Positions 878 to 58,880 of a DNA stretch of 64,000 bases are shown here, one piece after another. The stretch covers positions 1 through 64,000 of the IMG/VR virus record IMGVR_UViG_3300042475_001686; one strand, written 5' to 3'. Position numbers and translations under genes: made by a program. Below the pieces are notes generated by a model. The model was not told the DNA's origin and did no database searches. It saw only the letters and a program-made list of their open reading frames with translations. Origin of the DNA: a virus. Position 1 is the stretch's first letter; every line of letters starts with the position of its first letter.

Positions 878-885
878 TATTTCTC

Positions 886-3189: not shown

Positions 3190-3191
3190 AA

Positions 3192-3947: not shown

Positions 3948-3956
3948 TATATTATA

Positions 3957-5350: not shown

Positions 5351-5358
5351 CTTTGCTC

Positions 5359-26813: not shown

Positions 26814-27665
26814 TTATATGCTAAGTGATGGTTCCTTAATGCTAGAAGCATCTGAAGGAGCAACCAAGTTATTTACTGGATTAATAATAGACTTGCGTCC
26901 CATCATTAATTCTTCAATATTCTGACATACAACTGTCCACTCTTCTTCAAATATTTTCTTAGAGCGTCCCATGCCGATGTCGATCTGATCTGATCTTCCT
27001 TCCTTTGCTGCCATTTCTTTTACTGTCTTTTCAGAGTCCCAGTTAAGAATTGTGCATTGGAAATGCTTATCAACATATCCATCCTTGTCGACAAGATACT
27101 TTTCAAAGTTTCCACCCATGTATAGTCCATCATAGAAACCACGATTTAACCACCAGGAGAAGTATTTATCTCTAAACATTTCTCTGTGATCCATTCCAGT
27201 ATTGTTTACTTTTTCTTTAGCAGCAATCTGGTGCTTTCTGATTTCTAGATATAACTCGTGTGGTTCACCAAAAGGTTGTCCAAGTCCGTTATGTCCTGGC
27301 TCTACTCCTAACTGCTGGCTTACGCCTGAACCTGGAATTGAAGATACCATTTGTGAGAATTGAAAAGTTGTTCCATAAACATCTTTTCCGTAATTTGCTG
27401 AGTCTGCTCCACAAGTAATACCTTCTGACCATTTACCGTGTGTGATTCCAGGACCACAATAGTCATTGGTTGGAATAGCAACTATCTGAAAGTGCTCTCC
27501 ACCGTACTTATCTTGTAGCCATTGTAAAACTTCCATTTGATTTGCGTTACCGCATCCAACCGTAGTGTTAACAACTAGGGTTACTTTTCCTCTAAATTGC
27601 TCTAGGAAGTTGGTCTGCCCGTCGGCAGAATCTAATGATATATCGTATATAGATTTAAGTGTCAT
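26814..27665 (-). CDS. glutathione peroxidase-like protein
   Basis: GKVTLVVNTTVGCG..LQDKY..IVAIPTNDY..NFEKYLVDKDG. Confidence 0.75.
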   Translation of the reverse strand: MTLKSIYDISLDSADGQTNFLEQFRGKVTLVVNTTVGCGNANQMEVLQWLQDKYGGEHFQIVAIPTNDYCGPGITHGKWSEGITCGADSANYGKDVYGTTFQFSQMVSSIPGSGVSQQLGVEPGHNGLGQPFGEPHELYLEIRKHQIAAKEKVNNTGMDHREMFRDKYFSWWLNRGFYDGLYMGGNFEKYLVDKDGYVDKHFQCTILNWDSEKTVKEMAAKEGRSDQIDIGMGRSKKIFEEEWTVVCQNIEELMMGRKSIINPVNNLVAPSDASSIKEPSLSI

Positions 27666-28680: not shown

Positions 28681-28791
28681 CTATAACACGCACTCGCAAG
28701 GCTCAATGGCGTAATCCTCGTTATCACCATAAAAGATGTGCCCTCTGCCTGAGCATGTATCGCAATCTATTGTTTGAACTGAGTTTATCAT
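28681..28791 (-). CDS. 36-aa zinc-finger-like peptide (not in the ORF track)
   Basis: MINSVQTIDCDTCSGRGHIFYGDNEDYAIEPCECVL; AAAGGA RBS; resembles 31833..32045. Confidence 0.55.
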   Translation of the reverse strand: MINSVQTIDCDTCSGRGHIFYGDNEDYAIEPCECVL

Positions 28792-28847
28792 TTATTTATC
28801 CTTTTCTTTTTTGTTGATGTAATTCTATCAGGGGGCACTGACAAGGA

Positions 28848-29033
28848 CTAACCTTGCCAATGTGGAGAATAATCTCCGTCTGTAATCTCTGTTGAGAGAA
28901 TATCATAACCACTTGATACAAGAGTATCTAATAGGTCATTTATTTGACGCTCACTAACCATGAGGCGATTTGATACAGAAACGAGAGTATCCTCTTTCTG
29001 TGCTGTATAACTTAGGTTTAGCATATTTGCCAC
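28848..29033 (-). CDS. hypothetical early protein
   Basis: AGAAAGG RBS, own promoter. Confidence 0.5.
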   Translation of the reverse strand: MANMLNLSYTAQKEDTLVSVSNRLMVSERQINDLLDTLVSSGYDILSTEITDGDYSPHWQG

Positions 29034-29116
29034 CTAACCTTTCTTTTTTCTAATACTGTTATTCTATACCCTGCCACTGACATTTTGGGGGGTGTCTGTG
29101 GTGTCCCCCGTGTGAT

Positions 29117-29224
29117 TTATCTCACACTATTTAGCGAATCTACACAATTCGGACATATCGCAGGGATACTGCGCTTAGAGACATAAGTGGTCTGACCACA
29201 CAACATACATTTTTTCTTACTCAT
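29117..29224 (-). CDS. 35-aa zinc-ribbon peptide (not in the ORF track)
   Basis: MSKKKCMLCGQ..ICPNC; AAAGAAAGG RBS. Confidence 0.5.
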   Translation of the reverse strand: MSKKKCMLCGQTTYVSKRSIPAICPNCVDSLNSVR

Positions 29225-29494
29225 AACTAACCTTTCTTTATAGGAGAATAATAACATAGAACACTGACAAAGTCAACACGACACGCCGATAAAATAAAAA
29301 ATATTTTGTGTTCTGTATCACATGTCCTAAATGTCCGATTTTCCTAGGCAACCTAGGGGGTTATCCACAGGCTGTGTATAAGTTATGTGTCTAAGGTCAC
29401 AAAAATAGTTTCCCGACACGCCCGAAAAACAGGCTAATTTGTCAGTCCCCCCTGATAGGATACCAGTATAACAAAAAGAAAGGTAGGTCAGAAA

Positions 29495-29692
29495 ATGACT
29501 ACACTAAATAGAAATGAAGTAGTAGATTTGTTAATTGAAATGGATTTCTGCTTAACAGATAAAATCTGCGTATTTTGCTCATCACTAACAGATGGTTGGA
29601 ACGCTATCTGCTACTCTTGCCGTGACTATAAAGGCATGATGAACATTGTTGAAGCCGTAGAATACTACGGAACAGATATTCTCCCTGTGTGA
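29495..29692 (+). CDS. small Cys-rich early protein
   Basis: CVFC..CYSC; RBS. Confidence 0.55.
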   Translation: MTTLNRNEVVDLLIEMDFCLTDKICVFCSSLTDGWNAICYSCRDYKGMMNIVEAVEYYGTDILPV

Positions 29693-29777
29693 GGTAAATC
29701 ACACCCACGCTACGGCGTGTCGAATTGACATTTTTACAAAAGTATGAAATAATAAAATTATAAAGAAAGGTCGAAAA

Positions 29778-29924
29778 ATGACTACATTTGATAGAATACT
29801 AAAGGCTCAACAAGAGCAACGCAAAATCCAAGCGATAAAGGATAAAGCCGTGGTTGAGAGTTTATTCTCTAATAATCCACGCCCTCTCAATAATGCCTAC
29901 CTACTAAAACAGGCTGAGAGATAA
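29778..29924 (+). CDS. 48-aa hypothetical protein (not in the ORF track)
   Basis: TAAAGAAAGG RBS, TTGACA promoter. Confidence 0.5.
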   Translation: MTTFDRILKAQQEQRKIQAIKDKAVVESLFSNNPRPLNNAYLLKQAER

Positions 29925-30005
29925 ATCACAAAAACTAACGGCGTGTCGATTTGATTTCTACGCCAAAATATGAAATAATAGGATACATAAAGAAAGGTAA
30001 AAACT

Positions 30006-30218
30006 ATGAAAACTTATTCAATTGAAGATTTGCTGGTAGATACTTACTACGCACCTCGTTCTCTACGCCGTCGTTTCAATGGCGGAATTATCAACCACGC
30101 AGAAAAGCGTGAGGATATTTATTTATCAGAAGGCTATGAGGCTTTCGCTATTCGCTACCGCCCAACAGGTCGTTTCAATGACGAATGGGCTACTGTCGCC
30201 GTAAAGGTGGCAGACTAA
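30006..30218 (+). CDS. hypothetical early protein
   Basis: AGAAAGG RBS. Confidence 0.55.
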   Translation: MKTYSIEDLLVDTYYAPRSLRRRFNGGIINHAEKREDIYLSEGYEAFAIRYRPTGRFNDEWATVAVKVAD

Positions 30219-30330
30219 TGAAACTTGATGAATTCAAGGCTTATATTGAAGCACAGCGCAAAGCGCAACAATTGACAAACTCAGAGAAAATCGCTAAAAT
30301 TGTATCAACAACTAAGAAAGGCAATAACTA

Positions 30331-30591
30331 ATGACTACAACAACTTATACAGATTACCCATTTACCGCTCAAGGTGTAAAATTTATTTCAAGAGTATATA
30401 ATAATTCACCAATGGCAAATCAAATTGCTATGCTTCCCGCAGGCGTATTTACTCAAATGAATCTTCAAGCAATTACAGACTTGTTAGGTGATGCTTCAAT
30501 TCTAACTCATACAGAATTAGTAAATGAATTAGAAAAAATCAACGAAGGTGGCTCAACTGCTTTCATTCTATTAGATGAGGAAAATAAATAA
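30331..30591 (+). CDS. hypothetical early protein
   Basis: AGAAAGG RBS. Confidence 0.55.
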   Translation: MTTTTYTDYPFTAQGVKFISRVYNNSPMANQIAMLPAGVFTQMNLQAITDLLGDASILTHTELVNELEKINEGGSTAFILLDEENK

Positions 30592-30785
30592 TGTCACTAA
30601 CTAAATCACACTTCAAGGCTATCGCCTCAATTCTAAATGATGTCAAAGATGAAATTCACCCGCAGGTCTATGAAGACCTCGTGGAAAGTTTCGCAGTTTA
30701 TTTCTCAACTAAAAACGAAATGTTCGACAAAGCAAAATTTGAAACTGCTTGCGGTGTTGATGAGATAGGACTAATTCCAGTATGA
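30591..30785 (+). CDS. conserved small phage protein
   Basis: TKSHFKAIA..FDKAKFETAC. Confidence 0.55.
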   Translation: MSLTKSHFKAIASILNDVKDEIHPQVYEDLVESFAVYFSTKNEMFDKAKFETACGVDEIGLIPV

Positions 30786-31263
30786 TGAGAATTCTAACTA
30801 CACTTGTTCAAATTGGTTTAGTGCTTTCAATTTATTTTATAATTAGAAATGCCACGAAAGAAAACTAAATTTAGTAAATGCGAAATCTGCGGTAGAATTT
30901 TTATCGCAGATCTAAAGTGTTTTGTGTGCGCTGCTAAAAATGCTTGAACTTTCAACTAAAATCGCCTAGGGGGTTTTCCACAGGTTTATCCACAATGTGA
31001 ATTACGTTACAATGTGAATTTCCCCACAGATTTATCGGCGTGTCGGATTGAAAATGTCAGTAGAAAATGATAGGCTGGAAGCCTGAAAATAAAGAAAGGA
31101 TAACTAATGAAAAAAAATGTTCTAATTAGTTTTGTTACTGAAGCAGACTCAGATTTATCTGCTGTATTTGCTCTAAATAAAACTTTTCTAAATTTGCCTG
31201 AAAACGAATTAGCAAAGTTTGATGTGTTTGATGTTGTCGATGTTGTAGAGGAGGCTCAATAAA

Positions 31264-31761
31264 ATGGGTTTGGATATGTATCTCCACGCTAAAAAGTATG
31301 TGGAAAAAGTAAATTGGCAGGCGTTACAGGATAATGATGAATTGTCTTATGACTCTCCTGAAGTGGTATTCCCTTTGTGGAATAATATTGTTGAAACAGC
31401 AGGAATGAAAGATGTTGCTGTTGATATCTATGGCGTTCATGTTGAAGTAACTTGTGCTTATTGGCGCAAGGCTAATCAGATACACGCTTGGTTTGTAAAG
31501 AATGTTCAGGGTGGAGAAGATAATTGTGGAGAATACTATGTATCCCATGAGAAATTGAAATCTCTACTTGATCTTGTGAATAAGGCTTTGGCAGAGCGTA
31601 ATCCTAACTTGTTACCCCCACAAGCAGGATTTTTCTTTGGCGGTACTGATATCGATGAATGGTATTGGCAAGACCTAAAGAATACTAAGGCTAAATTGGA
31701 CAGAGTATTTGCTCTACCCGAAATGTCCAAATTGTCCTTTTACTACACTTCTTCGTGGTAA
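31264..31761 (+). CDS. conserved phage protein
   Basis: MGLDMYL..YWRKANQIHAWF..GFFFG..YYTSSW. Confidence 0.65.
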   Translation: MGLDMYLHAKKYVEKVNWQALQDNDELSYDSPEVVFPLWNNIVETAGMKDVAVDIYGVHVEVTCAYWRKANQIHAWFVKNVQGGEDNCGEYYVSHEKLKSLLDLVNKALAERNPNLLPPQAGFFFGGTDIDEWYWQDLKNTKAKLDRVFALPEMSKLSFYYTSSW

Positions 31762-31832
31762 AGGGCGTGGGGGATTTGATTTTGTCAGTCCCCCATGATA
31801 AGGTTAGATTATTGAAAGAAAGGAAATAAAAA

Positions 31833-32045
31833 ATGGATAAATTGGAATACGCACTACGGACTATTGCTAACTGCGACCTATGCTACGGCAAGGGTTATCA
31901 TGGATTTGCTAATGGCGAGGACTACGACATGGAGGACTGCGAGTGTAATATCTACGGGCTAATCCTTGACGAAGACGGCTCAGTATTATTTGACAATGGC
32001 TTACTAAGTGAGCCTCAATTATTTACAACACAGGAGGCTTACTAA
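31833..32045 (+). CDS. zinc-finger-like protein
   Basis: CDLCYGKG..DCECN. Confidence 0.55.
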   Translation: MDKLEYALRTIANCDLCYGKGYHGFANGEDYDMEDCECNIYGLILDEDGSVLFDNGLLSEPQLFTTQEAY

Positions 32046-32046
32046 T

Positions 32047-32328
32047 ATGGGAAGTAATTTCGCACACGATTTAGCGTTGTTTGATGATATGGCTATTGAG
32101 AAGCAGATTAGAATTCACTTGTCTGCTAATCACTACCCACCCGTTCCACCTATCATGGTTCAACCTTGTGTTGAAGCCATTGACGCTGTGAATGACGCAG
32201 GACTTTGGGATTTAGAAATTCCTATGCCTGAAGGTGTAAGTTATAAAGGTTTGACTACTGCTCCTGCTTGGGCTATTATTGAACAACACCACCTTGATGC
32301 GTGGCTTATTGAAAGAGAGGAAGTCTAA
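32047..32328 (+). CDS. hypothetical phage protein
   Basis: HLSANHYPPVP..AIIEQHHL; start at MGSNF after GGAGG. Confidence 0.55.
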   Translation: MGSNFAHDLALFDDMAIEKQIRIHLSANHYPPVPPIMVQPCVEAIDAVNDAGLWDLEIPMPEGVSYKGLTTAPAWAIIEQHHLDAWLIEREEV

Positions 32329-32469
32329 TGAAATTTGATGAAATGGTAGTAAAGGTTCTTGACCTATTCCCTGAAGCGTTCTTCCATGAAGGAGAAGATG
32401 GCGAGGTAGTAATCTCAACAGGCTTCAGACTTGTAAATGACGAACTAATAGCGATGGAGGAAATCTAAA

Positions 32470-32679
32470 ATGGAATACACTTACTCACTTACTACTTCCT
32501 ATGACGGAAGCCTTGTAAATACCCTGCGAGTATCAGACATGCTTGAAGCCGTAAATGTGTGGGATAAATGCGTAGACTTTGGAGATGCTAAGGAATACGC
32601 AACCTACAACCTATCAGACCCAACAGGTAAAATGTATACAAAAACCTTTTATCGTAATGGAGAGGTATCCATTCGCTAA
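32470..32679 (+). CDS. hypothetical protein
   Basis: GGAGG RBS. Confidence 0.5.
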   Translation: MEYTYSLTTSYDGSLVNTLRVSDMLEAVNVWDKCVDFGDAKEYATYNLSDPTGKMYTKTFYRNGEVSIR

Positions 32680-32913
32680 ATGTCTGATACAATGATTCGT
32701 ATGGAAGAAGACTTTCGCTTGGTAGATATTCTCAACGCAGACCAATTAGAAGTAGGAGATCTAATTGGTTTGAATGATGAAGTTGTTAGAGTAATTGAAA
32801 TTGCCCCAGCAAAATTTGGTTATGTTGTCACCTATGAAAATGAATTTGGTGAAAAAGAAATTTCAGATATAACTGATGATGAACGTTTTGAATTATTTAT
32901 AGAAAACTTCTAA
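32680..32913 (+). CDS. hypothetical small beta-barrel-like protein
   Basis: ADQLEVGDLI. Confidence 0.45.
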   Translation: MSDTMIRMEEDFRLVDILNADQLEVGDLIGLNDEVVRVIEIAPAKFGYVVTYENEFGEKEISDITDDERFELFIENF

Positions 32914-33145
32914 AAACCGCCTAGGCGATTCGGACAATTCGGACATTTGCATTTTTGTTATTTTTATGATAAGATTATTACATGATGAAAAAAACGGCTG
33001 AGGAATTACGCAGACTTATGGAATTACGCAGATCTAATGCTGCAACTCCATTAAGGAATAAAAAATCCTACTCCCGCAAAGTTAAACACAAAAAATTTGA
33101 CTTATCAAAATAAAAATGTTATAATAAAAATAAAGAAAGGAACCC

Positions 33146-33865
33146 ATGAAACTAAAACGTAGCATGGACAGAAAGGTAACTAATGCCGTCTCACCCAATG
33201 GAAAAACCCCAACAATTGCCAACACTTTTGGATTGCCTGCTGGAAAGGCTTTCTCGTGCCCTGGTGCCACCAATACTTGTGAAAGTGTTTGTTACGCAGG
33301 AAAACTTGAAAGAGTATACAAAGGAGTAAAGGCTGTACTCCTGCACAATTGGGAATTACTAAAAGACGCAGACCATGACACTATGGAAAACCTGCTGCAG
33401 GAAATGATTGAAGACTTTAGAAAAGATTGTGAAAAGAAAGACGCTCCTCTGCTATTCCGCATTCACTGGGACGGGGACTTCTTTTCTGATGAGTACGCAT
33501 TCGCATGGAAACACGTTATTCTAAATAACCCTGATATCAAATTCTGGGTTTATACACGTGTAGCCTCTGCTGCTAATATGCTAAAGAATATAGATAACTT
33601 ATCTCTATACTATTCAACAGATAAAGATAACAAAGAGATTGCTATTAGTCTAAATAAGGAAAAGGGCATTCGATTGGCATACCTTGCGGATACCTTCGCA
33701 ATTGGGCAGGCAGACCTAAAGGCAATGATAGGCAAGCCTGGTGCTAAGTGTCCTGAGAATAAAAAGGCTATTCCCCTAATCTCACAGGCAGGCAGCGCAT
33801 GCGTGTCTTGTGGCTTGTGTATTGACGAGAAATCTGATATAGTATTTAGCGCAAAGAAAAAGTAA
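33146..33865 (+). CDS. mycobacteriophage gp88-like protein
   Basis: SCPGATNTCESVCYA, FRIHWDGDF, WVYTR, C-terminal CVSCGLC. Confidence 0.65.
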   Translation: MKLKRSMDRKVTNAVSPNGKTPTIANTFGLPAGKAFSCPGATNTCESVCYAGKLERVYKGVKAVLLHNWELLKDADHDTMENLLQEMIEDFRKDCEKKDAPLLFRIHWDGDFFSDEYAFAWKHVILNNPDIKFWVYTRVASAANMLKNIDNLSLYYSTDKDNKEIAISLNKEKGIRLAYLADTFAIGQADLKAMIGKPGAKCPENKKAIPLISQAGSACVSCGLCIDEKSDIVFSAKKK

Positions 33866-34051
33866 GGGACAGATGAAAATAATACTATTATTAGGGTGGG
33901 CTATGCTCCTATGGGTGCTTTTCTATCCCCCCCTAAAGTGACCTATCTCACAATCTCAAAATGTGAGAAATGTCAGAAATAACTTGACACAGCAAAAAAT
34001 AAATGTCATAATAATAACAAGTAAGAAAACAACTAACAAAGGAGAAAGAAA

Positions 34052-34219
34052 ATGGCAGTAGCAACAGCAACCTACAAGGTAGGCGACCTATACACCTCAC
34101 AGAAGTCAAAGGTTACAGGCACTATCACAGAAATCAAGCCAAACAAGGACGGCTCAACTGTTCGTGTCAAACTTGATGTCAATGGCACACCTCGCTGGAC
34201 AACTTGGACAGCAAAGTAA
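34052..34219 (+). CDS. 55-aa SH3/KOW-like protein (not in the ORF track)
   Basis: YKVGDLYTSQKSKVTGTI..VRVKLDVNGTPRW; AGGAG RBS. Confidence 0.6.
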   Translation: MAVATATYKVGDLYTSQKSKVTGTITEIKPNKDGSTVRVKLDVNGTPRWTTWTAK

Positions 34220-34235
34220 TTCCTAATACAGGAAA

Positions 34236-34264
34236 AGTCCTGAGCATGACTACTAAAACTGCTC
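34236..34264 (+). ncRNA. 3'-UTR H-type pseudoknot motif, copy 1
   Basis: AGTC-CTGAGCAT-GACT-ACTAAAAC-TGCTC. Confidence 0.7.
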
Positions 34265-34331
34265 ACTTGACTTTCTAACTGAAAAATGTTAGACTATAAA
34301 TAACCCAAAACCCATAAGAAAGGAAAACAAA

Positions 34332-34754
34332 ATGGCAAGAAGCCAAAAAGCAATTAGCGTGAAAATCGCTACGACTAAAGTTATCAAGGCTTTAGAAACT
34401 AAGTTAGCACAAATCCAAAAGGATAAGGCTAATCAAGCAACTAACGAGGAGAAGTTCAACAAGGCTCACGAAAAGTGGTCTAAAGATGTTGCTAAACTTT
34501 CTCTCAACGCTATCAACAAGGCAGAGGACTTATCTGCTAATCTAAGATACAATGGCATGGTTCATGTTTCTTTTGATTTGCCTAAAGGTTCTATTGACCT
34601 ACCTGCTCAACCTGAAAAGGATTTTGACACTTATCATGAGTGGCAATACAAAGAAATGGTAGATGAAATTGAGAACGCTATTCGTATTCTCAAGATGACA
34701 GATGAGGAAGTAGTTTCTACCTCAACTTACAACGCTATCGCCCGATACTTGTAA
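34332..34754 (+). CDS. hypothetical coiled-coil protein
   Basis: TTGACT..TAGACT promoter, AGAAAGGA RBS. Confidence 0.6.
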   Translation: MARSQKAISVKIATTKVIKALETKLAQIQKDKANQATNEEKFNKAHEKWSKDVAKLSLNAINKAEDLSANLRYNGMVHVSFDLPKGSIDLPAQPEKDFDTYHEWQYKEMVDEIENAIRILKMTDEEVVSTSTYNAIARYL

Positions 34755-34759
34755 TTCAC

Positions 34760-34786
34760 TCTCCTGAGCATGAGATAAAACTGCTC
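34760..34786 (+). ncRNA. pseudoknot motif, copy 2
   Basis: TCTC-CTGAGCAT-GAGA-TAAAAC-TGCTC. Confidence 0.7.
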
Positions 34787-34815
34787 ACTAACAAAATAGA
34801 CAGAAAGGAAAACAA

Positions 34816-34983
34816 ATGACACTCGGAGGCTACACTTATCAGGTAGGAGATTTATTTACTACCAGCAAGACAGGCGTTACAGGACGAATTGAAAAGTTTG
34901 TTCCACAAAGTAAAAATGTAACTCGTGTAATGCTTCGTTTGGCAAATGGTCAGCAACGATTTGCTATGGTAAAGACTTACTAA
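34816..34983 (+). CDS. 55-aa paralog of 34052..34219 (not in the ORF track)
   Basis: YQVGDLFTTSKTGVTGRI..TRVMLRLANGQQRF. Confidence 0.6.
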   Translation: MTLGGYTYQVGDLFTTSKTGVTGRIEKFVPQSKNVTRVMLRLANGQQRFAMVKTY

Positions 34984-35068
34984 TAAAATTGTTACTCTGT
35001 GTTCAAGGCAGACTGCGACACAAAATCGAATTGTGTTGATCTTTCTGCGAAAGTCCCTTGAGTAACCT

Positions 35069-35096
35069 TACTCCTGAGCATGAGTATAAACTGCTC
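35069..35096 (+). ncRNA. pseudoknot motif, copy 3
   Basis: TACTC-CTGAGCAT-GAGTA-TAAAC-TGCTC. Confidence 0.7.
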
Positions 35097-35224
35097 CCCT
35101 CTCAAAAAATCGCCTAGGCAATGTGATTTAAAACACAGTCCACTATGTGAGATAGTTTACGTTCTCGATTTGATTTCCCCTCTAAAAAATGTTATGATTA
35201 TATTATCTAAGAAAGGATAAATAA

Positions 35225-35488
35225 ATGATTAGCACCGCAATAGCAATACAAATGGCAACGCAGGACGCAGTTCATGACGAGAGTGTTATGGATTTGGCTT
35301 CTGCTCTTTATCATCACAGAAATGAAATGAGCGACGAGGACTTTGCTAAAGCAATGTTTATGTATTCTGCTCATCTATCAGCAATGACCGCTACTTTAGT
35401 TACTCATGCCTGCTTGACTGAAAGCCAACTAAATGATATGCTTGAAACAATAAAGGAAATGGATTCCATGGGAAAGGATATTGAATAA
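35225..35488 (+). CDS. hypothetical protein
   Basis: AGAAAGGA RBS. Confidence 0.55.
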   Translation: MISTAIAIQMATQDAVHDESVMDLASALYHHRNEMSDEDFAKAMFMYSAHLSAMTATLVTHACLTESQLNDMLETIKEMDSMGKDIE

Positions 35489-35928
35489 TGGAAACAACAG
35501 AAACCGTAGTACCCGAACACTACAACTCCAATCAACTCGTAACTTATAAGGTTATTGAGAATGGTGCCGCTACATATCCAACCGTAAAGGTTGTGGACCT
35601 TGAGTGGGACCTGTATCAGAATCGTTCTAATGCAGCCAGTCTGTCTCAATACATTAATAAAGTAAATCAGTTAGAGAATCGTCTTCCTGATTATCTTGAT
35701 ATGGATTCAGAAGATATTGTCTCTGATATCTGCAGCATTTTTGGATTCAACCCAACTAAGGAAATTGAATTCGAGGCAACAGCCACAATTACTGGTCGTG
35801 TACTTGTACCACTTAGTGATTTAGCAAACTTTGATATCGACGACATAGACTTAACCGTTTATGCAGATTCACATTCACACGACGTTGAAGTTGATGTAGA
35901 AGTTGACCACATCTCTCGTGTAGACTAA
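35488..35928 (+). CDS. acidic hypothetical protein
   Basis: Translationally coupled to the upstream gene. Confidence 0.55.
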   Translation: METTETVVPEHYNSNQLVTYKVIENGAATYPTVKVVDLEWDLYQNRSNAASLSQYINKVNQLENRLPDYLDMDSEDIVSDICSIFGFNPTKEIEFEATATITGRVLVPLSDLANFDIDDIDLTVYADSHSHDVEVDVEVDHISRVD

Positions 35929-36009
35929 TAAATTTCTTGGCCTTCATGAAAGGGGCCAAGATCTGCAAGCATTGCTCCTCTTTCATCCTTTCTTTAGGGA
36001 GCATGCAAG

Positions 36010-36038
36010 GGACCTGAGCACGTCCACGTAAACTGCTC
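36010..36038 (+). ncRNA. pseudoknot motif, copy 4
   Basis: GGAC-CTGAGCAC-GTCC-ACGTAAAC-TGCTC. Confidence 0.7.
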
Positions 36039-36173
36039 TTTAAAAATTGCCTAGCCCGCAAAATCTTATTTTGTCAAATTTACGGCGTGTCGGGACATTT
36101 ACGTACCAGGATTTGCAATTGTCAGAGGGTTATGCTAAGATTGATAAATCACTTACAGAAAGGACAAAAAATA

Positions 36174-37190
36174 ATGGCGCATGAATTAGAAACGCAAAAT
36201 GGCGTTGCTTCTTTCGCATCATTCCGTGAACCTGCTTGGCATGGTCTTGGCACAGTATTCACGGAAGAAAAAACAACAGCAGAAATGTTATCTGCTGCTA
36301 ATCTAAACAATTGGAATGTTCGTCTTGAGGACGTAAATGTTCCATCTCACTTATCGTCAGATAAATCTTATCAATATGTTGTTCGCACTAACCCTACGGA
36401 TAACACACAGACCGATATTCTCGGTGTTGTTGGTGAGCGTTATCATGTTTTACAGAATGAAGATTTATTCTCATTCGGTGATAATATTCTTGACGGCGGA
36501 GGTCGTTGGGAAACTGCTGGCTCTATTCGTGGAGGTCGTGTTGTATTCGGTTCTCTTGCTCTTGAGCGTGAAACTGTATTAGACCCAAATGGTGTTGCGG
36601 ATAAGGTCAAAACTTATCTTCTCATCAATACATCACATGACGGCTCTATTGCTATTCAAGCAAGTATAACACCTGTTCGTGTTGTATGCGCTAACACTCT
36701 AAACCTTGCTCTTGGCTCTAAGCGTGGGCGTAATGCTATCAAGCAATCTTTCAAGATTCGCCACACACAGACCGCTAATGGTAAAGTTCAAATTGCTCGT
36801 GAGGCTCTTGGTCTTGCTAATGCTTACATGGACGCTTTCGACATCATGGCTAAACAAATGATTGAGAAAGAAATCACAGCGCAACAGTTCAATGATATTG
36901 TTCTCGCTGCGTATCCTAAGCCTGATGAAGAAAAGAAGGGCGCACTTACTCGTTGGACTAACAAGGTTGATGTTATCAATGACATCTACACAGGTGAGTT
37001 CAATGGCATGATTGCTGGCAATGCGTGGGGTGCTTTCAATGCTCTTACTGAACGCCTTGATTGGCATCGTTCTGCTCGTGGTGGAAATACTGAGGCAATG
37101 CTCGCTGCTGCTTCTGGTTTTGACGCAACAATTACAGCAGAAAAAAATCGCTTGCTAACTGTTGTAAAAAATACTTTGCAACTCGCATAG
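36174..37190 (+). CDS. DUF932-family phage/plasmid protein
   Basis: MAHELE..PAWHGLG..ETAGSIRGGRVVF..NTSHDGS..TPVRVVCANTL. Confidence 0.8.
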   Translation: MAHELETQNGVASFASFREPAWHGLGTVFTEEKTTAEMLSAANLNNWNVRLEDVNVPSHLSSDKSYQYVVRTNPTDNTQTDILGVVGERYHVLQNEDLFSFGDNILDGGGRWETAGSIRGGRVVFGSLALERETVLDPNGVADKVKTYLLINTSHDGSIAIQASITPVRVVCANTLNLALGSKRGRNAIKQSFKIRHTQTANGKVQIAREALGLANAYMDAFDIMAKQMIEKEITAQQFNDIVLAAYPKPDEEKKGALTRWTNKVDVINDIYTGEFNGMIAGNAWGAFNALTERLDWHRSARGGNTEAMLAAASGFDATITAEKNRLLTVVKNTLQLA

Positions 37191-37194
37191 CAAA

Positions 37195-37222
37195 ATTTCC
37201 TGAGCATGAAATAAAACTGCTC
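37195..37222 (+). ncRNA. pseudoknot motif, copy 5
   Basis: ATTTC-CTGAGCAT-GAAAT-AAAAC-TGCTC. Confidence 0.7.
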
Positions 37223-37336
37223 AATTTTTATTTTTCAATTTGCAGATCATAACAAAAAATGCCTAGCAAAACCGACAAATCGGACATTGTATTTTTGTAA
37301 ATATTTTATTACGTAGCACTTGCTTTTTTTGCTGGA

Positions 37337-37752: not shown

Positions 37753-38487
37753 ATGCCCAATTGGTGCTACAACTATCTTGACATATCAGGTGACGAAACC
37801 CTGATTGCAGATATCAAACGACAACTCAACAAACCATTTGTAAAAGACCATGATTCATGGAATGCTACAACTGGACAAATGGAAGTATCTCAAACTACTT
37901 ACCCTAATCCTGTGTTTGCATTTCATAATATATATAATCATAGACAAGACGGTATTTCAGACGAGGAATATATCAAGCAACCTGACCATACCCTGCCTTT
38001 AGAGGAATCTCTTATGTTCAAGGGTAATCATTGGTACGACTGGAATGTTCGCAATTGGGGAACCAAATGGGACGTTGCTGTTCACGATAACGATAAGTAT
38101 CCTGATACTGAGTTATATGAGGAGAGCACTACAGTTCTTGGATATAAATTCAATACCGCTTGGTCTCCACCTATTCAGGCTATAACTAAACTATCAGAAC
38201 AATATCCTACTCTCAACTTCAATCTATCTTATGAAGAAGAAACAGGTTGGGGTGGGGAAGTTACATTGCTTAATGGTTTTATCACTACCGTTGAGGAATA
38301 CGAGAACAAGTGTCGTGACTGTGATGAACTTAACAGTCTTGAGTATTGTGAGAATGACTGCGGTGAGATATGTAATGTATGTCACTATATGGGCGAGGCT
38401 GACCTTGACTGTGTTGCAGAATGTCAGGACCACAAGGTATACTTGGATGAAAAGCATGTACCCGACTATAGATTGGAAAAGGCATAA
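37753..38487 (+). CDS. DUF1281/YubB-like phage protein with Cys-rich tail
   Basis: MPNWCYN..WYDWNVRNWGTKWD..FNTAWSPP. Confidence 0.7.
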   Translation: MPNWCYNYLDISGDETLIADIKRQLNKPFVKDHDSWNATTGQMEVSQTTYPNPVFAFHNIYNHRQDGISDEEYIKQPDHTLPLEESLMFKGNHWYDWNVRNWGTKWDVAVHDNDKYPDTELYEESTTVLGYKFNTAWSPPIQAITKLSEQYPTLNFNLSYEEETGWGGEVTLLNGFITTVEEYENKCRDCDELNSLEYCENDCGEICNVCHYMGEADLDCVAECQDHKVYLDEKHVPDYRLEKA

Positions 38488-40189: not shown

Positions 40190-41083
40190 AAACCATATCA
40201 AACCACAAACCATAAAACCATTTTACGAATGTATTACGAACCATTGTAAATTTTTCCCAGAAAGATTACGATCCAAACCATATTTTCCCCAAACCATATA
40301 GCATAATATTTTTGGTTTGTCAAACCTTCAAGCCATAGTGTATGATTGTTTGTATAGTACTAGGGGTATTACGATGTCTTTTATATACCCCGCCGTTTTT
40401 TAAAGACATTACGAACGCCGATTTCTTCCCCCCTCCAGAAAGTTTGGCGGGAATAAACGGGAGTATAATAATTATATGAGTCCCCGTCACTTTTCAAAGA
40501 TGTATCAAAACAAAAGTCAACACAGACATGATCAGCAATCTGACTGGGACTCTTTTACAAAAGACATGACGGTTTTGACTGGTATGTTATACTCAATTGC
40601 AAAGGCACCTCTCAAACCATTCATCCCTGCCTTCTACAAAACGGCGGGAGAAGTTAAAAAAGATTACGAACCTCTCTATAATCCCCCTATAAAGGAATAA
40701 CAAACCATATTTCCTGGTTTTAAAACATTTTAAAAAGTATTACGAACTTATTGGAATTTTTCCTGGATATTTGGCAATTTTCATCCAAAATAGATTACGA
40801 ACCCTATTGACAAACCATGGTTTTGGATGTATAATGCCCAAACCTTATATGATGGTTTGACAATATCGGGCATATATGGTATGAGGGTTTGTGAGGTTTG
40901 AAGATATTGGGTGTGAGGGTTTGTGAGGTTTGGGATTACGAACGCCATCTATAAAAACGTTCCATTCACCACTATCCTCCACTTCACTCCACTTTAACCC
41001 TATCCAATAATATAATCAGTAAGATTTATCTGTGGATAACTTGTGGATAACTAATGTCAAACCGATGATAACCCTGTGGATAA
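40190..41083. repeat. iteron-like TTACGA and AAACC repeats plus three DnaA boxes (origin candidate)
   Basis: Nine TTACGA copies at 40223-40936; TGTGGATAA at 41031, 41042 and 41075. Confidence 0.6.
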
Positions 41084-41203
41084 CTCTGTCTTTTCCCATC
41101 CACAAACAGTACAAAAATAGATTATCTTGGTGTCATCTGCATGGGTACTAAATCTATGTAAATGCATTGGGTAATTATAAAACCATTATTTGCGACGGTA
41201 TAT

Positions 41204-41722
41204 TTAATAAGATGTTATTTTTGAGCGGGGTATATAATTAACGTTAATAACCTGTCTCATTGGTCCCATATGTGGTGTACACCATGAATGTTTAGAACCA
41301 TCAAACAAGATAGCAGCACCACGTTTGGGTGATATTGAGTGAACTATCTCCAAACCATCATAGATCAAGGTGTCTCCGTATGCATCATTAACGTAATATA
41401 GAAAAACCAGGTGATATGCGGACATGTCTGTATGTGGGGTTGATACTATAGTCTTTGTATTAGGGGGTGTCATGTTGAATTTGACTCTACTCACTATACC
41501 CTCGCCAATTTGGTATTTGTTTAGCATTTTATTTAGGATAAACCTTGTAGCCTTATATTCTGGTGTATTTTCTTCATGGTCTGAGGTAAAGTATTTGATG
41601 TTACCTTCATCATCGACCTTATCTAAAATATTACAATATTGCCATTTATAAACAGAATTGAATATAGTATCTATATCATCTATTTCCTGGTCGCTTAGGA
41701 AATTATCATCATATATGAACAT
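41204..41722 (-). CDS. 2OG-Fe(II) oxygenase
   Basis: PHTD..YYVNDAYGDT..FDGSKH..RQVIN. Confidence 0.75.
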   Translation of the reverse strand: MFIYDDNFLSDQEIDDIDTIFNSVYKWQYCNILDKVDDEGNIKYFTSDHEENTPEYKATRFILNKMLNKYQIGEGIVSRVKFNMTPPNTKTIVSTPHTDMSAYHLVFLYYVNDAYGDTLIYDGLEIVHSISPKRGAAILFDGSKHSWCTPHMGPMRQVINVNYIPRSKITSY

Positions 41723-41844
41723 ACAAACCCTATCTGTAGAGTTTAATTATAACATAGGCCATATTAGAGATATTAACCCCTATTGCTCGTTTAGAGCATA
41801 AGAGGGTTTGTTATTCTATTTTCCGCCGAACTTGAAAGATGATA

Positions 41845-42642
41845 TTATTTTTTATATCTTTGTGCTTTAATATCAAGCAATATATGATCTGTTACACCTT
41901 TGTGCTCTAATATTGCCTCATTCATTAGATGATATTCTTCACCCAACGCCGAAGAATAACCAAATTCAGAATGTATGACCATAAAAATATAATATTTTTC
42001 ACCATCAGTAACTTCTTCAGCAACATGCACTGTTGTACAAGGAAATATTAACGCACTTCCAGCAGATGGTTTTATTTTAATATCTAAATCTGGGAACAGT
42101 ATCTCTCCCCCAGAATAGTTATCATTGAGATAAAATAAAACTGACCAATCCATTGTATTTAATGGATTGTCTACATTTTTGTCAACATGTGGACCTATTT
42201 TACCTCCTACTTTATACTTTCTGAGAAAATAGTTTTTAGATATATACTCTAAATCTTTATTGCCAGTTTTTTCAGACCAAATTTTTATAATTTCTTTGTA
42301 CGGCTTATCTATAAGATCAATAGTTTTTTCTACAGTTTTGTGTGCATAATCTTCAAACACATATTCTGGTCTTGGCCAAAATAAATTATAGTTACTGGCA
42401 GATCTATCCCAATCAAATAATTTTTGTTTGCCTTTTGAATATGTATCTATCTGCATTTTCCAGTCATTTTCTGAGCCACTGCCTTTTACTGGACGACTAT
42501 CTCTCCAGTCTTCCCACGGCGGTATGACTGAGTGTGTTAATTCGTCAAGATCATATTTCTCTATTTGCTGTATAAAGTATTCTGATTCAGGAAGGGCATC
42601 TTCTATATAAAGTATGCCCATGGGAAGTTCTGTAATTTTCAT
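41845..42642 (-). CDS. 2OG-Fe(II) oxygenase, P4H-like
   Basis: PHVD..YLNDNYSGGEILF..HVAEEVTDGEKY. Confidence 0.85.
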   Translation of the reverse strand: MKITELPMGILYIEDALPESEYFIQQIEKYDLDELTHSVIPPWEDWRDSRPVKGSGSENDWKMQIDTYSKGKQKLFDWDRSASNYNLFWPRPEYVFEDYAHKTVEKTIDLIDKPYKEIIKIWSEKTGNKDLEYISKNYFLRKYKVGGKIGPHVDKNVDNPLNTMDWSVLFYLNDNYSGGEILFPDLDIKIKPSAGSALIFPCTTVHVAEEVTDGEKYYIFMVIHSEFGYSSALGEEYHLMNEAILEHKGVTDHILLDIKAQRYKK

Positions 42643-42696
42643 TTACATATTATAGCACTAAAAATAATATATTTTATACTATGATATAATCTTTGT

Positions 42697-43485
42697 ATGC
42701 CTAATTACGATTTATTAGAAGTTAAAGATCCACAAAAACTGCAAACCCTGAAGGATATCTGGGAGCCACGCAAAGAGTTCATCGAAAAAGATCTTTGGGT
42801 TATTCGTAACTTTTTGAGTGAAGAAGAACTTGAATGGCTAAATAAAGAAGCAATTGATCCAAACGGATGGTATCCAACTATGCGCTCCCCATATGGTGGA
42901 AATATTAGAAATAAGTTTCTTGGCTATGTTCCTGAGTATGGCGAAGATGGCATTTTAATTCCACCTCATCCAAAAAATAATCCAGTATTTGTTCCAGTAC
43001 CATTTCTTAATGATATTGAGGATAGATTAGAGTCTGTTTTGCCAAAATACTTTGCTGGTGCTGGAGCACTGCAATCATTTTTTGAAGTTTCAGAAGATGA
43101 ACCTCTTGTTTACAATCCAGATCAAAAAGTGAAAGATGTTGATTGGGCCATGGGTTGGCACTACGAGAGAGATGACGAAGATACAAAAGAAAAACAATTT
43201 ACAATAGTCGCTGAATCATCTAATAAGGCTGCAGTTATGTCAGAAACAATTATATCTGCATCATTTAATGTTTATATTAATGATAATTTTAATGGTGGTA
43301 TTTTAGAATTTAAAAACAAGGATTACTCCATCAAACCAGAACCAGGTATGCTAATTAACATTCCATTATATAAGGAGTTTGAGCATCGTGTTACTAAGGT
43401 AACTAAAGGTAATAGACATACTCTTTATGGAAGATGTTGGGAAGATATCAATAAATCTTTTTTATCTTCAAGAGAAGACTGTTAA
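42697..43485 (+). CDS. 2OG-Fe(II) oxygenase
   Basis: WHYE..YINDNFNGGILEF..HRVTKVTKGNR. Confidence 0.75.
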   Translation: MPNYDLLEVKDPQKLQTLKDIWEPRKEFIEKDLWVIRNFLSEEELEWLNKEAIDPNGWYPTMRSPYGGNIRNKFLGYVPEYGEDGILIPPHPKNNPVFVPVPFLNDIEDRLESVLPKYFAGAGALQSFFEVSEDEPLVYNPDQKVKDVDWAMGWHYERDDEDTKEKQFTIVAESSNKAAVMSETIISASFNVYINDNFNGGILEFKNKDYSIKPEPGMLINIPLYKEFEHRVTKVTKGNRHTLYGRCWEDINKSFLSSREDC

Positions 43486-48308: not shown

Positions 48309-50393
48309 ATGTCAGAAGCAAAGTGCCCATTTACGGGTAACAGTTTAAATAATGAAGGAACATATAATAAAGATTGGTGGCCAAACCAATTAGACTTGTC
48401 TCCTTTAAGAAAGAATTCATCTAAGTCAGATCCAATGGGAGAAGACTTTGATTATGCTGAAGAGTTTAATAGTTTAGATCTTGATGCAGTCAAGAAGGAT
48501 ATTGATACACTTCTAACTACCTCGCAAGATTGGTGGCCTGCTGATTACGGCAACTATGGACCACTATTCATTCGCATGGCATGGCATAGCGCAGGAACAT
48601 ATAGAACAACTGATGGTCGTGGTGGTGCTGGAGAAGGTCTACATAGATTTGCCCCACAAAACTCATGGCCAGATAATGGTAATTTAGATAAGGCTCGTAG
48701 ACTTTTATGGCCTATCAAACAAAAATATGGAAAGAAGATTTCATGGGCAGACCTCATGATTCTTGCTGGTAATGTTGCTCTTGAAAACATGGGCTTTAAA
48801 ACTTTCGGTTTTGGTGGAGGTCGTGTAGATGTTTGGGAAGCAGACGATACATATTGGGGTAGCGAAAAGGAATGGCTTGCAGACAACCGTTATAGCGGTG
48901 ATCGTGAGTTAGAGAATCCTCTTGCTGCTGTACAAATGGGTTTGATTTATGTCAACCCTGAAGGACCAAACGGTAATCCAGATCCATTGTTATCTGCACG
49001 AGATATCCGTGAGACATTCGCAAGAATGGCAATGAATGATGAAGAGACCGTTGCTCTTATTGCTGGTGGACATGCATTCGGTAAAGCACATGGTGCTGGA
49101 GATCCCAAGAATGTTGGACCAGAACCAGAAGGCGCATCTATTGAAGAGCAGGGCCTTGGCTGGAAGAATTCATTTGGTAAGGGTAATGCAGAAGATACCA
49201 TTACAAGTGGTATTGAAGGTGCATGGACTCCTACACCAACTAAGTGGGATAACTCCTACTTAAAGATTCTATTTAAGTATGATTGGAAGCAGGTAAAGTC
49301 TCCTGCTGGTGCGACACAATGGATTCCTACAGATGAATCTGCTGTTAATTTAGTACCAGATGCACATGTTGAAGGAAAGTTTCATGCTCCAGTGATGACA
49401 ACAGCAGATTTGGCTCTCAAGTTTGATCCAGAATACGAAAAGATTTCAAGAAGATTCTTAGAAGACTTTGACTATTTCTCAGATCAATTTGCTCGTGCTT
49501 GGTTTAAACTAACACACAGAGATATGGGTCCTGTTGCTCGTTATCTTGGCAAAGAAGTTCCTACAGAAGAACTAATTTGGCAAGATCCAGTACCAAGCAA
49601 TGTTAATATGAATATTGATGTAGAGTCTATCAAGAAGGCTATTAAGTCTTCTGGTATACCACTATATTATTTCGTATATACTGCGTGGTCTTCTGCATCT
49701 ACTTTCCGTAAAACAGATAAGCGTGGTGGAGCAAATGGTGCACGTATTCGCTTGGAACCTCAAATAAGTTGGGACTCCAACAATAAAGAAGTTATCTCCA
49801 CTGTAATTAATTATTTAGAAACATTGCAGAAGGAATACTCAGCATCATTAGCAGACTTAATTGTTCTTGCTGGATGCGCTGCTATCGAAAAGGTATCTGA
49901 AGAAAAGGTTGTAGTACCATTTACACCTGGAAGAACAGATGCAACACAAGAACAAACAGATGTGGAATCATTTAGTGTTCTTGAACCGATTGCAGATGGC
50001 TTTAAGAATTATTTAAAAGATGGAGTTATAACTCCTTCAGAAGTTCTTTTAGTTGAAAAGGCAAATATGCTAAACCTAACACCAGTAGAGATGGTTGTTC
50101 TATTGAGTGGAATGAGAACATTAATGACAAACAGACTAAGCAATGGTTATTTGATCAGTTTGTTATCTGGACAAATTACCTGGAAACAAACATCTATCAA
50201 TAATTTTGAAGGATATGTTGGTGGTGATCTTATAGGTAACGCAAGTCGTGTTGATCTTATTTTCGGATCTAATTCAGAACTTCGTGCTATTGCAGAAGTC
50301 TATGCTTCTGACGATGCAGAACAAAAGTTTATGGATGATTTTGCTCAGGCATGGAATAAGGTAATGATGCTTGATAGATTTGATGTAAGATAG
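48309..50393 (+). CDS. katG: catalase-peroxidase
   Basis: [43 protein letters not shown]; two-domain architecture. Confidence 0.97.
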
Positions 50394-52184: not shown

Positions 52185-52604
52185 TTACTTGATTTTGATA
52201 GTTTTTGGTTTCTTTTCTTCTGGGATGTTTCTTTCCACAAAGACGCTAAGAATACCGTCTGCCATTTCAGCACGATCAACCTCCATATACTCTCCAAGAG
52301 CAAAGGTGCGTGTGAATTTTCTGGTTGCGATACCCTTATGAAGTACCTCAGAAGAGGACTCTTCGGTTTTCTCACCCTTGATAATTAGACTTCCATTATC
52401 CACAGAAACCTCTACCTCACTCTTGCTAAATCCAGCAAGGGCTAAAGATAGTTTGTAAGTGTCCTCATCAAGTTTAACCACATCATATGGTGGGTAGGAT
52501 TGACGAGTTGCCTCACGATGGATATTTGAAAGACGGTCCAACTCTCTGTTGAAACCGATAAAAAAAGGATCTTTGAAAAGATCCAATGACCATGTACTTA
52601 CCAT
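52185..52604 (-). CDS. small heat shock protein (Hsp20/IbpA family)
   Basis: SYPPYDVVK..LALAGF..HKGIATRKFTRTFAL..DGILSV. Confidence 0.95.
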   Translation of the reverse strand: MVSTWSLDLFKDPFFIGFNRELDRLSNIHREATRQSYPPYDVVKLDEDTYKLSLALAGFSKSEVEVSVDNGSLIIKGEKTEESSSEVLHKGIATRKFTRTFALGEYMEVDRAEMADGILSVFVERNIPEEKKPKTIKIK

Positions 52605-55295: not shown

Positions 55296-55580
55296 TTATA
55301 GCCAATACTTTAGTATAGCAGTTAAAGCAAGAATTGTCCAGAGGATGTTGAACCAAATAATTGTGGGCAATGTCTTGACAGTTGATGACCAGATTAATGC
55401 TAAACTAGTTATTAAAGCAATTATATAAAGCCACCAAATCTGTGTATTGAATAAAAGCCCTGGAATAATAATTGCTGCCTTGGTCATAAATGCAAAGAAC
55501 TCAACAGTATTAGGTTTATTCCAATACTCTTTATGCCCCATAGTTTTTAAAGCGTTTATCCATTCTGTTTTAAAGTTCAT
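55296..55580 (-). CDS. small membrane protein
   Basis: Three hydrophobic segments. Confidence 0.5.
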   Translation of the reverse strand: MNFKTEWINALKTMGHKEYWNKPNTVEFFAFMTKAAIIIPGLLFNTQIWWLYIIALITSLALIWSSTVKTLPTIIWFNILWTILALTAILKYWL

Positions 55581-57121: not shown

Positions 57122-57363
57122 TGTTCCTTGCCACCTTCACGAACTAATAAAACTATTGCCCCATTGTCTTCCAAGGCCTTCTTAACCCTTACCATATATT
57201 CTACAGCACGTCTTTTGTCTTCGTCTGGAAGACGCATAAAAAGATCTTCCTTAGCCTTTACGGTAATAAAATGTTCATTATCTATCAACTCTAAATGAAA
57301 TCCTTTAGGAGCAAAATTGTCAAGAGATCTAAAGGCTCTACGCATAACATCTGTATACATCAA
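57118..57363 (-). CDS. hypothetical protein
   Basis: ORF in the operon. Confidence 0.5.
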   Translation of the reverse strand: MMYTDVMRRAFRSLDNFAPKGFHLELIDNEHFITVKAKEDLFMRLPDEDKRRAVEYMVRVKKALEDNGAIVLLVREGGKEQ

Positions 57364-57659
57364 AGCATTTCCTCTGGTTGCTTTCTAGCAGTAGTAATAA
57401 TTGCTTTTGTGCCTTCCCATCTTACACGACCCCTGCAACCGACATTATACTTTGTGTCTCCTTCATATTGTGAAGAAACAGCATAGGCATACCCATGCAA
57501 CTCAAAATCACTGGCCAAAGTTTGATTGCCATTTATAAATATTCTCCACACCATAGGATCTTCTGGACCAGCCTTTGTGTTAAATCTTAAAATAATATCA
57601 TCATAAGGCCTAAGCCATCTATCCTTAACTATGGCCCAAATATAATTTATTTTGTTCAT
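57360..57659 (-). CDS. hypothetical protein
   Basis: LRFNTK..WRIF. Confidence 0.5.
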   Translation of the reverse strand: MNKINYIWAIVKDRWLRPYDDIILRFNTKAGPEDPMVWRIFINGNQTLASDFELHGYAYAVSSQYEGDTKYNVGCRGRVRWEGTKAIITTARKQPEEML

Positions 57660-58586: not shown

Positions 58587-58880
58587 TCATTTTTGATCCT
58601 CATCAAGCGTTAAATTCTTCCATGTATTACCCCAGTCAGATTCTGTCTTATGGCTGTTAAACTCTTTAGATATGGCTCCAGATTCTAAATAAATACCGCC
58701 CCATACTCCATACTCTTTGCTTGATACACCTACAGCAAAACAAGTTTTAACAACTGGACATTGCATACATAGCGCATCAATTGCTGGTCTTAATAACTCA
58801 TCCTCTTCATATTTATCAAAGAATAAGTTAGTATCATAATCCAAGCAAGTCGCTGCGTCTTTCCATTTAAGTTTGTGCAT
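58587..58880 (-). CDS. whiB: WhiB-family transcription factor
   Basis: WKDAATC..FF..CMQCPVVKTC..YGVWGG. Confidence 0.9.
   Translation of the reverse strand: MHKLKWKDAATCLDYDTNLFFDKYEEDELLRPAIDALCMQCPVVKTCFAVGVSSKEYGVWGGIYLESGAISKEFNSHKTESDWGNTWKNLTLDEDQK

Follow-up and report, generated by a model that had tools for sequence, protein, structure and literature searches.

A promoter class with a PafBC-like -26 element in a large family of uncultured low-GC actinophages

We analysed the first 64 kb of IMG/VR virus record IMGVR_UViG_3300042475_001686 (hereafter the window, 64,000 nucleotides of one 117,492-bp contig; 36.7% GC, no N), in which seven promoter-like sites of the form TGTCAG-N10-TANNNT lie between positions 28822 and 36141. 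The record is listed as 100% complete and 'linear'. The phage encodes structural proteins (portal, prohead protease and a 2,988-aa tape measure), replication proteins (a DnaE-type polymerase, RecA, DnaB and primase) and a class II ribonucleotide reductase, and carries seven tRNA genes. Its portal is 46-47% identical over the full length to portals of 125-133-kb Streptomyces phages, and a WhiB-family protein found by family scan (58587-58931, minus strand) matched proteins of phages only, infecting Streptomyces (127 records), Rhodococcus (9) and Mycobacterium (2). Because the portal and WhiB matches both point to actinobacterial phages, we class it by these proteins as a very-low-GC actinophage. 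Megablast of 28-40 kb against cultured phages returned no close cultured relative.

The seven sites (P1 to P7) and a possible eighth are given below in order along the window; ORF denotes an open reading frame and -10 and -35 the promoter elements.

28822-28843, minus strand: P1, TGTCAGTGCCCCCTGATAGAAT; no -35, extended -10 TG; first in the leftward block behind it is a 34-aa Cys-rich ORF (ATG at 28791), and the block continues to SpeD-like and glutathione-peroxidase-like genes.
29061-29082, minus strand: P2, TGTCAGTGGCAGGGTATAGAAT; no -35 (CCCAAA in that position) and no extended -10 TG; followed by a 61-aa ORF, 28848-29033.
29248-29269, minus strand: P3, TGTCAGTGTTCTATGTTATTAT; TTGACT -35 at 17-nt spacing, adjoined by CGGCGTGTCG; followed by a 35-aa Cys-rich ORF, 29117-29224.
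29440-29461, plus strand: P4, TGTCAGTCCCCCCTGATAGGAT; no -35, extended -10 TG; followed by a 65-aa ORF, 29495-29692.
31055-31076, plus strand: P5, TGTCAGTAGAAAATGATAGGCT; TTGAAA -35 with CGGCGTGTCG upstream; followed by ORFs 31107-31262 and 31264-31761.
31783-31804, plus strand: P6, TGTCAGTCCCCCATGATAAGGT; TTGATT -35; followed by ORF 31833-32045 and small ORFs up to 32913.
36120-36141, plus strand: P7, TGTCAGAGGGTTATGCTAAGAT; TTGCAA -35; followed by a DUF932 gene from its ATG at 36174 to 37190.
38422-38443, plus strand: possible eighth site, TGTCAGGACCACAAGGTATACT; TTG at 18-nt spacing; located in the last codons of ORF 37753-38487, 44 nt upstream of an ATG at 38487.

P1 to P7 all lie in intergenic DNA, which by our own ORF call makes up 5.2% of the genome, and at each of them the ATG of the target gene follows 23-36 nt downstream, after a AAAGAAAGG-type ribosome-binding site (RBS). 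P1-P3 point leftward and P4-P7 rightward, out of a divergent control region near 29.3 kb, with P3 and P4 themselves diverging from 29.27-29.44 kb. The genes downstream are mostly small and without a family match, the exception being the DUF932 protein behind P7. Tiny Cys-rich peptides (CxxC...CxC) of no known family are the first genes behind several of the boxes (28690-28791, 29117-29224 and 31833-32045).

The original prediction had named these seven sites as promoters with exact N10 spacing, several of them carrying a TTG at -35, and had proposed enrichment over shuffled spacers as a check. Its coordinates, strands and spacing all proved correct, a TTG with a 17-nt spacer is present at four of the seven, and the enrichment is clear: the window contains nine exact matches to TGTCAG-N10-TANNNT compared with 0.86 expected (s.d. 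0.93, largest 3) from 100 dinucleotide-preserving shuffles, none of which reached nine. The hexamer by itself is not enriched (34 copies in the window versus 31.6 expected); the signal resides in the pairing of hexamer and -10 box. When spacings from N4 to N20 were scanned over the whole genome, N10 was the only one enriched: it gave 10 matches, and none of the others more than 2 (range 0-2). Among all hexamers located 10 nt upstream of a TANNNT in the genome, TGTCAG ranked first by enrichment (10 of its 47 copies, 7.9-fold). Two further matches, at 60092 and 68120 (both plus strand), are antisense within minus-strand genes and fit the roughly one match expected by chance. The site at 38422-38443 may be an eighth promoter, and is indistinguishable from that same expected chance match.

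Two kinds of promoter share this region. At P3, P5, P6 and P7 the -35 hexamer sits exactly 1 nt upstream of TGTCAG, which results in the 17-nt spacer, and six of the seven sites in the window display an extended -10 TG. Promoters with -35 and -10 elements and no TGTCAG occur in the same stretch, for example upstream of 34332, 37753 and 39171, and the two classes are therefore interleaved.

The arrangement is conserved in relatives. Searching viral contigs with a GP88-family protein of the region (33146-33865) recovered 593 relatives, of which the best 80 loci (1.09 Mb, 37.9% GC) were analysed. In these best 80 of 593 loci TGTCAG-Nk-TANNNT had 500 matches at k=10, each of the 16 other spacings giving 3-91, while TGTCGG-Nk-TANNNT occurred 45 times at k=10 and at most 16 times elsewhere; relatives carried up to 12 sites per 15-17 kb. 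A logo of 433 distinct sites reads (a/t)TGTCAG-T-S-S, then an extended -10 T (77%) G (80%), then TAnnnT. Directly after the hexamer comes T in 58%, and the next two positions are G or C in 83% and 82% against a background of 38% GC; these T and G/C positions had been left free in the motif search. A census of -10/RBS/ATG arrangements in the family yielded 311 of the TGTCAG type, with a TTG at 16-18 nt in 151 (background 11%) and an extended -10 TG in 249. In the half of family sites that lack a -35, CCnAAA(A/T) tends to precede the box.

The promoter of the DUF932 gene could be followed through 49 distinct orthologous upstream regions. The exact motif is present in 36, eight others keep TGTC (as TGTCAC, TGTCAT or TGTCTG) and five have an unrelated spacer, with the -35 and extended -10 kept in nearly all. 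Judged from this variation among orthologues, the box is under selection, yet can be lost without loss of the promoter. By their motif, spacing, placement and conservation the seven sites constitute a real promoter class of a large uncultured family of low-GC actinophages, heading a block of small genes that is probably early or middle.

The element resembles that of PafBC promoters in Mycobacterium and in other Actinobacteria. PMC8635444 gives their in vivo consensus as tGTCgg(N10)tA(N3)T, 22 nt long, with a near-invariant GTC triplet and with the 5' part at -23 to -28, where lowercase letters (positions 5-6 among them) denote 50% conservation or less. The same source describes these promoters as lacking a -35 and names their mode of activation 'sigma adaptation'; R46 and R50 in the helix-turn-helix (HTH) of PafB read the GTC triplet while E42 and A43 surround the thymine methyl, and the HTH of PafC contacts sigma domain 4 (PMC8635444). 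The activating signal, according to PMC11804915 and PMC8635444, would be single-stranded DNA. The published -26 element invoked by the original prediction agrees with this consensus (PMC8635444). The phage sites share with PafBC promoters the 22-nt length, the N10 spacing, the GTC core, the SigA-type TANNNT and the T followed by G/C-rich bases after the hexamer, and their hexamer would fall at -23 to -28 when placed from the -10 box. All seven intergenic sites have the 22-nt tGTCgg-N10-tAnnnT layout, and TGTC is kept in 44 of the 49 DUF932 orthologues. The motif also goes by the name RecA-NDp, in the form tTGTCRgtg-N8-TAnnnT.

The phage sites also depart from that model. To our knowledge PafBC promoters have been described solely at DNA-repair genes of hosts, whereas the phage ones head small genes without known function. 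Position 5 of the phage element is A about ten times as often as G, unlike the gg of the published consensus, and only the phage type combines the element with other core elements: roughly every second site adds a -35 hexamer at 17 nt, and about 80% add an extended -10 TG. Because four of the seven window sites carry a -35 and six an extended -10, they are not of the -35-less, activator-obligate PafBC kind, which RNA polymerase-SigA alone does not recognise.

As a positive control we inspected the upstream regions of recA in an even sample of the phylum. A box was present 59-168 nt before the RecA match in nine of 20 larger actinobacterial genomes (within about 800 nt). Four of these nine boxes have TGTCAG, three of them in the context TGTCAGTGGCAG, and the remaining five show TGTCGGTG(G/C)C, so that the host recA sites follow TGTCRG-T-G-G/C. 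The A at position 5 and the T followed by G/C-rich bases, both seen in these boxes, are therefore natural features of host sites.

Other promoter types share some of these features. In extended -10 promoters (TGnTAnnnT) of housekeeping sigma factors the TG is the same as in six of seven window sites and 249 of 311 family sites, and could by itself make a -35 dispensable. Such promoters require no conserved hexamer 10 nt upstream; the phage sites, in contrast, conserve one. T4 middle promoters, served by MotA and AsiA through what PMC8635444, which draws the comparison, calls 'sigma appropriation', are likewise a phage class with an element between -35 and -10. As in this phage, the T4 class is interleaved with ordinary early promoters, and its element replaces or supplements the -35. 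The MotA box lies at -30 and differs in sequence from TGTCAG.

We then consider what might read the element. A six-frame search of the phage returned no WYL match at E<=1, and PafB/PafC-like proteins from three actinobacterial genomes compared with all phage ORFs of at least 30 aa gave a best E of 0.33. Scans of 68+37+54 ORFs in Pfam and of 60 in PHROGs detected neither an HTH or sigma family nor a MotA-like activator or AsiA-like anti-sigma, although novel folds escape such scans. WhiB was the only transcription-factor family found in the phage ORFs. It was set aside as reader of the hexamer, as no protein of the WhiB type is known to recognise a specific hexamer. Since it is hardly by chance that an element of 6-9 bases at a single-base-exact spacing coincides with the site of a known activator from the phylum of the host, and since no phage PafB was detected, a host reader offers the simplest account; and since the element equals the site of a host activator, the reader is probably host-encoded.

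Our preferred reading, to which we assign a probability of roughly 0.55, is that the phage promoters represent a PafBC-like variant, probably dual-mode, that is read by the PafBC of the host. A housekeeping-sigma -10 box, usually extended by TG, is combined with the -26 element (a/t)TGTCAG-T-S-S exactly 10 nt upstream, the predicted target of the PafB HTH in a host PafBC-RNA polymerase 'sigma adaptation' complex. Single-stranded DNA arising in infection would activate host PafBC, which would dock on the -26 element and recruit or stabilise RNA polymerase-SigA. The half or so of the promoters that bear a -35 would be dual-mode, able to fire on SigA alone and to fire also, or go on firing, under active PafBC. 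Dependence of the promoters on PafBC is likely given the match of the element; that PafBC is the reader, when the promoters act and what triggers them are all three points that we infer, and this includes the early timing and the possible triggering by incoming DNA that the original prediction proposed. A broader claim, that a very abundant family of lake actinophages has adopted the single-stranded-DNA alarm promoter type of its host (PafBC 'sigma adaptation') as a main promoter class, we put forward tentatively, at slightly less than even odds. Among the papers listed by full-text searches, none links PafBC boxes to phage promoters.

On the host side, PafBC is a plausible reader, to judge from some low-GC genomes that keep a PafB with its DNA-reading residues. 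The host is not a mycobacterium. According to PMC6802176 most such phages with whiB lack a pinpointed host, the acI, acIV and Luna lineages having been proposed. Small draft actinobacterial genomes (1.3-1.9 Mb, incomplete) served as candidates. Tandem WYL genes in the pafB-pafC arrangement were found in three of 11 small genomes (G001, G239 and G022), and a fourth (G176) has two WYL genes on separate contigs. The WYL protein of G239, whose recA locus has 38% GC, matches PDB 7p5x chain AY and 9fnd chain X (E 4e-12). This protein retains equivalents of K5, R8, S40, E42, A43, R46, R50 and K52, the residues named as DNA contacts of PafB in PMC8635444. NCBIfam assigned no family to five host WYL proteins. 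The single-protein PafB search was insensitive, detecting seven of 31 genomes and missing G324, which has a clear regulon.

Motif counts in actinobacterial genomes were compared with the reversed pattern as control. TGTCRGTSS-N7-TANNNT matched 16, 33, 8 and 13 times in large relatives of G001, with no control matches. In five genomes of the order of G239, the phage-like pattern TGTCAG-N7-TGnTAnnnT matched four times with no control matches, and one of these four sites, TGTCAG-N7-TGaTAAAAT in G022, lies 12 nt upstream of an ORF for an AddB_N helicase-nuclease at a 34% GC locus. Small relatives of G001 yielded ten sites, nine of which read TGTCRGTG. Downstream ORFs were called at nine of these ten; five of them are RadA-like, a YqaJ exonuclease, GyrB and a DnaQ-like exonuclease (in two genomes), and the orthologous sites at the latter differ between the two genomes, one having TGTCAG and the other TGTCGG.

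A number of results weigh against host PafBC as the reader. No WYL match was found in seven of the 11 small genomes (G150, G284, G007, G295, G109, G021 and G066), which are incomplete drafts. At recA, the classic target, a box within about 700 nt upstream was seen in one of 20 small genomes, compared with nine of 20 larger ones, and in none of ten small genomes whose recA locus has a GC content below 0.50. The ten TGTCRGTSS-N7-TANNNT sites in thirteen small relatives of G001 compare with seven controls, whole-genome counts in 30 small genomes, with G324 set aside, came to 21 versus 20 controls, and the loose pattern TGTCRG-N10-TANNNT stayed at control level in low-GC genomes. Streptomyces phage Annadreamy, the one cultured distant relative tested, gave one match against two controls in 125.7 kb, and its host genus Streptomyces presumably has PafBC. 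Attempts to trace the host directly gave no lead: a scan of genome contigs with the phage RecA returned nine loci, all on phage-like contigs binned into metagenome-assembled genomes with unrelated labels, and a six-tRNA cluster showed 75-90% identity to all 10 genomes tested, which carries no signal. Within the phage sites, positions 7-8 favour C-C, whereas host sites have G-G/C. The absence of a -35 that characterizes PafBC promoters does not hold here, with TTGNNN at 17 nt in four of seven window sites, and the -35 TTG in 151 and extended -10 TG in 249 of the 311 family promoters mean that, strictly, these promoters need no activator. The claim of the original prediction that phage early genes are wired to the LexA-independent DNA-damage response of the host thus has partial support: the motif, its spacing, the actinophage assignment and the lack of a detected phage reader speak for it, and the seven small genomes without a WYL match, the tiny regulons of hosts and the promoters with a -35 or extended -10 speak against it.

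A rival account is an activator made by the phage itself. A protein of novel fold could read TGTCAG at -26 and bridge to sigma region 4, in the manner of T4 MotA/AsiA, in which case the interleaved promoters of the -35 type would be the immediate-early class that makes the activator. Two promoter classes interleaved in one region are the classic early/middle layout, many small ORFs of the region have no family, and both the Streptomyces relative without the motif and the many candidate host genomes without WYL genes would be accounted for. The match to the PafBC element over 6-9 positions and the exact spacing would, however, have to be coincidence, and no homologue of MotA or AsiA was found here, nor an HTH, sigma or PafB-like protein. 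We consider a phage activator unlikely.

Less probable still, TGTCAGTSS could be an operator in the spacer of self-sufficient SigA promoters, at which a phage or host repressor shuts the genes after the early phase. With a good -35 at 17 nt and an extended -10, half of the sites would be strong unaided, and the space between -35 and -10 is the usual position for a repressor. An operator would not require single-base-exact spacing to the -10, yet this is rigid in 500 family sites, and the half without a -35 carry the element where an activator would be expected. In addition the site is asymmetric, no repressor-like gene was found, and identity with the PafBC box would again be a coincidence.

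We give little credence to the boxes being mainly decoys, dozens of which in each replicating phage genome would soak up active PafBC and blunt the DNA-damage or defence response of the host, with transcription secondary. According to PMC12848934, which cites a 2025 study on pafBC and mycobacteriophage resistance, PafBC 'directly regulates phage resistance' in mycobacteria, and in relatives as many as 12 sites occur per 15-17 kb, but each site comes with a -10 box, an RBS and a correctly oriented gene, all superfluous in a sponge. Finally, tandem SigA promoters, in which TTGTCA would be a second, overlapping -35 paired with a second -10 just downstream, are highly improbable: about half of the sites have a T before TGTCAG, and of 446 sites 29% show another TANNNT at offset 21-22 (36% with a preceding T versus 22%), but in the other half A precedes and destroys the TTG, 71% lack a second -10 box, and the G at position 6 and the following T-S-S are left unexplained.

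A second element accompanies the promoters. All six copies of CGGCGTGTCG in the 117-kb genome lie inside 29279..36092:

29279-29286, minus strand: CGGCGTGTCG
29414-29421, minus strand: CGGCGTGTCG
29715-29722, plus strand: CGGCGTGTCG
29941-29948, plus strand: CGGCGTGTCG
31038-31045, plus strand: CGGCGTGTCG
36085-36092, plus strand: CGGCGTGTCG

Four of the six adjoin a -35 hexamer, and the promoters concerned include some that have TGTCAG and some that lack it. Of 308 copies in the 80 related loci, 72 keep a fixed distance of 30 nt from TGnTAnnnT. The element contains TGTCG(G) and may be the site of another regulator.

Several further features surround the promoter region. Three exact DnaA boxes (TTATCCACA; eight in the genome) are clustered within 41039-41091, in a 255-nt gap at 40949-41203 that may be a phage origin, and the promoter regions of P4 and P5 are closely preceded by single or paired boxes at 29361-29369 and 30974-30994. 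Perfect TGAGCA...TGCTCA hairpins, each preceded by CC, occur at 34241-34265, 34765-34787 and 37201-37223, the latter two directly after gene ends, with weaker copies at 35073 and 36013; they may be terminators or processing sites of the small-gene block. The small-gene block (28.8-47 kb) has AAAGAAAGG-type RBSs and the minus-strand structural or late-looking genes have AGGAG, with TATAAT-rich stretches without a -35 in front of the latter.

Four sequencing runs match the region (shares 0.06 or less), one of them an aquatic metatranscriptome and the other three probably DNA, and all match through contigs of relatives; as assembled contigs they carry no information on transcript start, strand or level. 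In the one RNA run the summed contig depth at 33958-34950, around a 140-aa ORF of no family (34332-34754), is 574-1990 compared with mostly <150 elsewhere, which, contig depth being a poor measure of expression, is only a hint. The contig of a relative at 33958-34950 has a TGTCAG box where this phage has TTGACT-N17-TAGACT.

Elsewhere the genome carries an unusual gene complement. A KatG-type catalase-peroxidase of 694 aa (48309-50393), flanked by tRNA genes and locally GC-richer (0.416), a glutathione-peroxidase-like gene (26814-27665) and an Hsp20 gene (52185-52604) look like an oxidative-stress set carried by the phage. Twelve paralogous 2OG-Fe(II) oxygenases, eight of them above the Pfam cut-off, are located at 146-6842 and 41204-43485 of the window and at 115585-117436 of the genome. 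They make up seven of nine consecutive genes at the left end of the contig and two at the right end, and because paralogues are present at both ends the array probably runs across them. At 55577-58417 a tryptophan-halogenase-family gene (E 6e-105) is close to an APS-kinase-like gene, a pair that is unusual in a phage.

The occurrence of a PafBC-type box before phage genes throughout a family suggests a new mode of timing, in which the virus would listen to the single-stranded-DNA sensor of its host. The natural variants of the promoter, which differ in the presence of a -35 and in having A or G at position 5, could help to dissect the competition between sigma adaptation and ordinary -35 recognition. 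Should the reader not be PafBC, the family would hide another activator of the -26 element, one that is not yet known. If it is PafBC, a virus would here be using sigma adaptation for the first time, and PafBC would work in streamlined low-GC actinobacteria that have almost no regulon of their own. The cell's signal of DNA trouble would then become the ignition of the phage, and with hybrid -35/-26 promoters a given gene could be expressed ahead of the alarm as well as once it has sounded.

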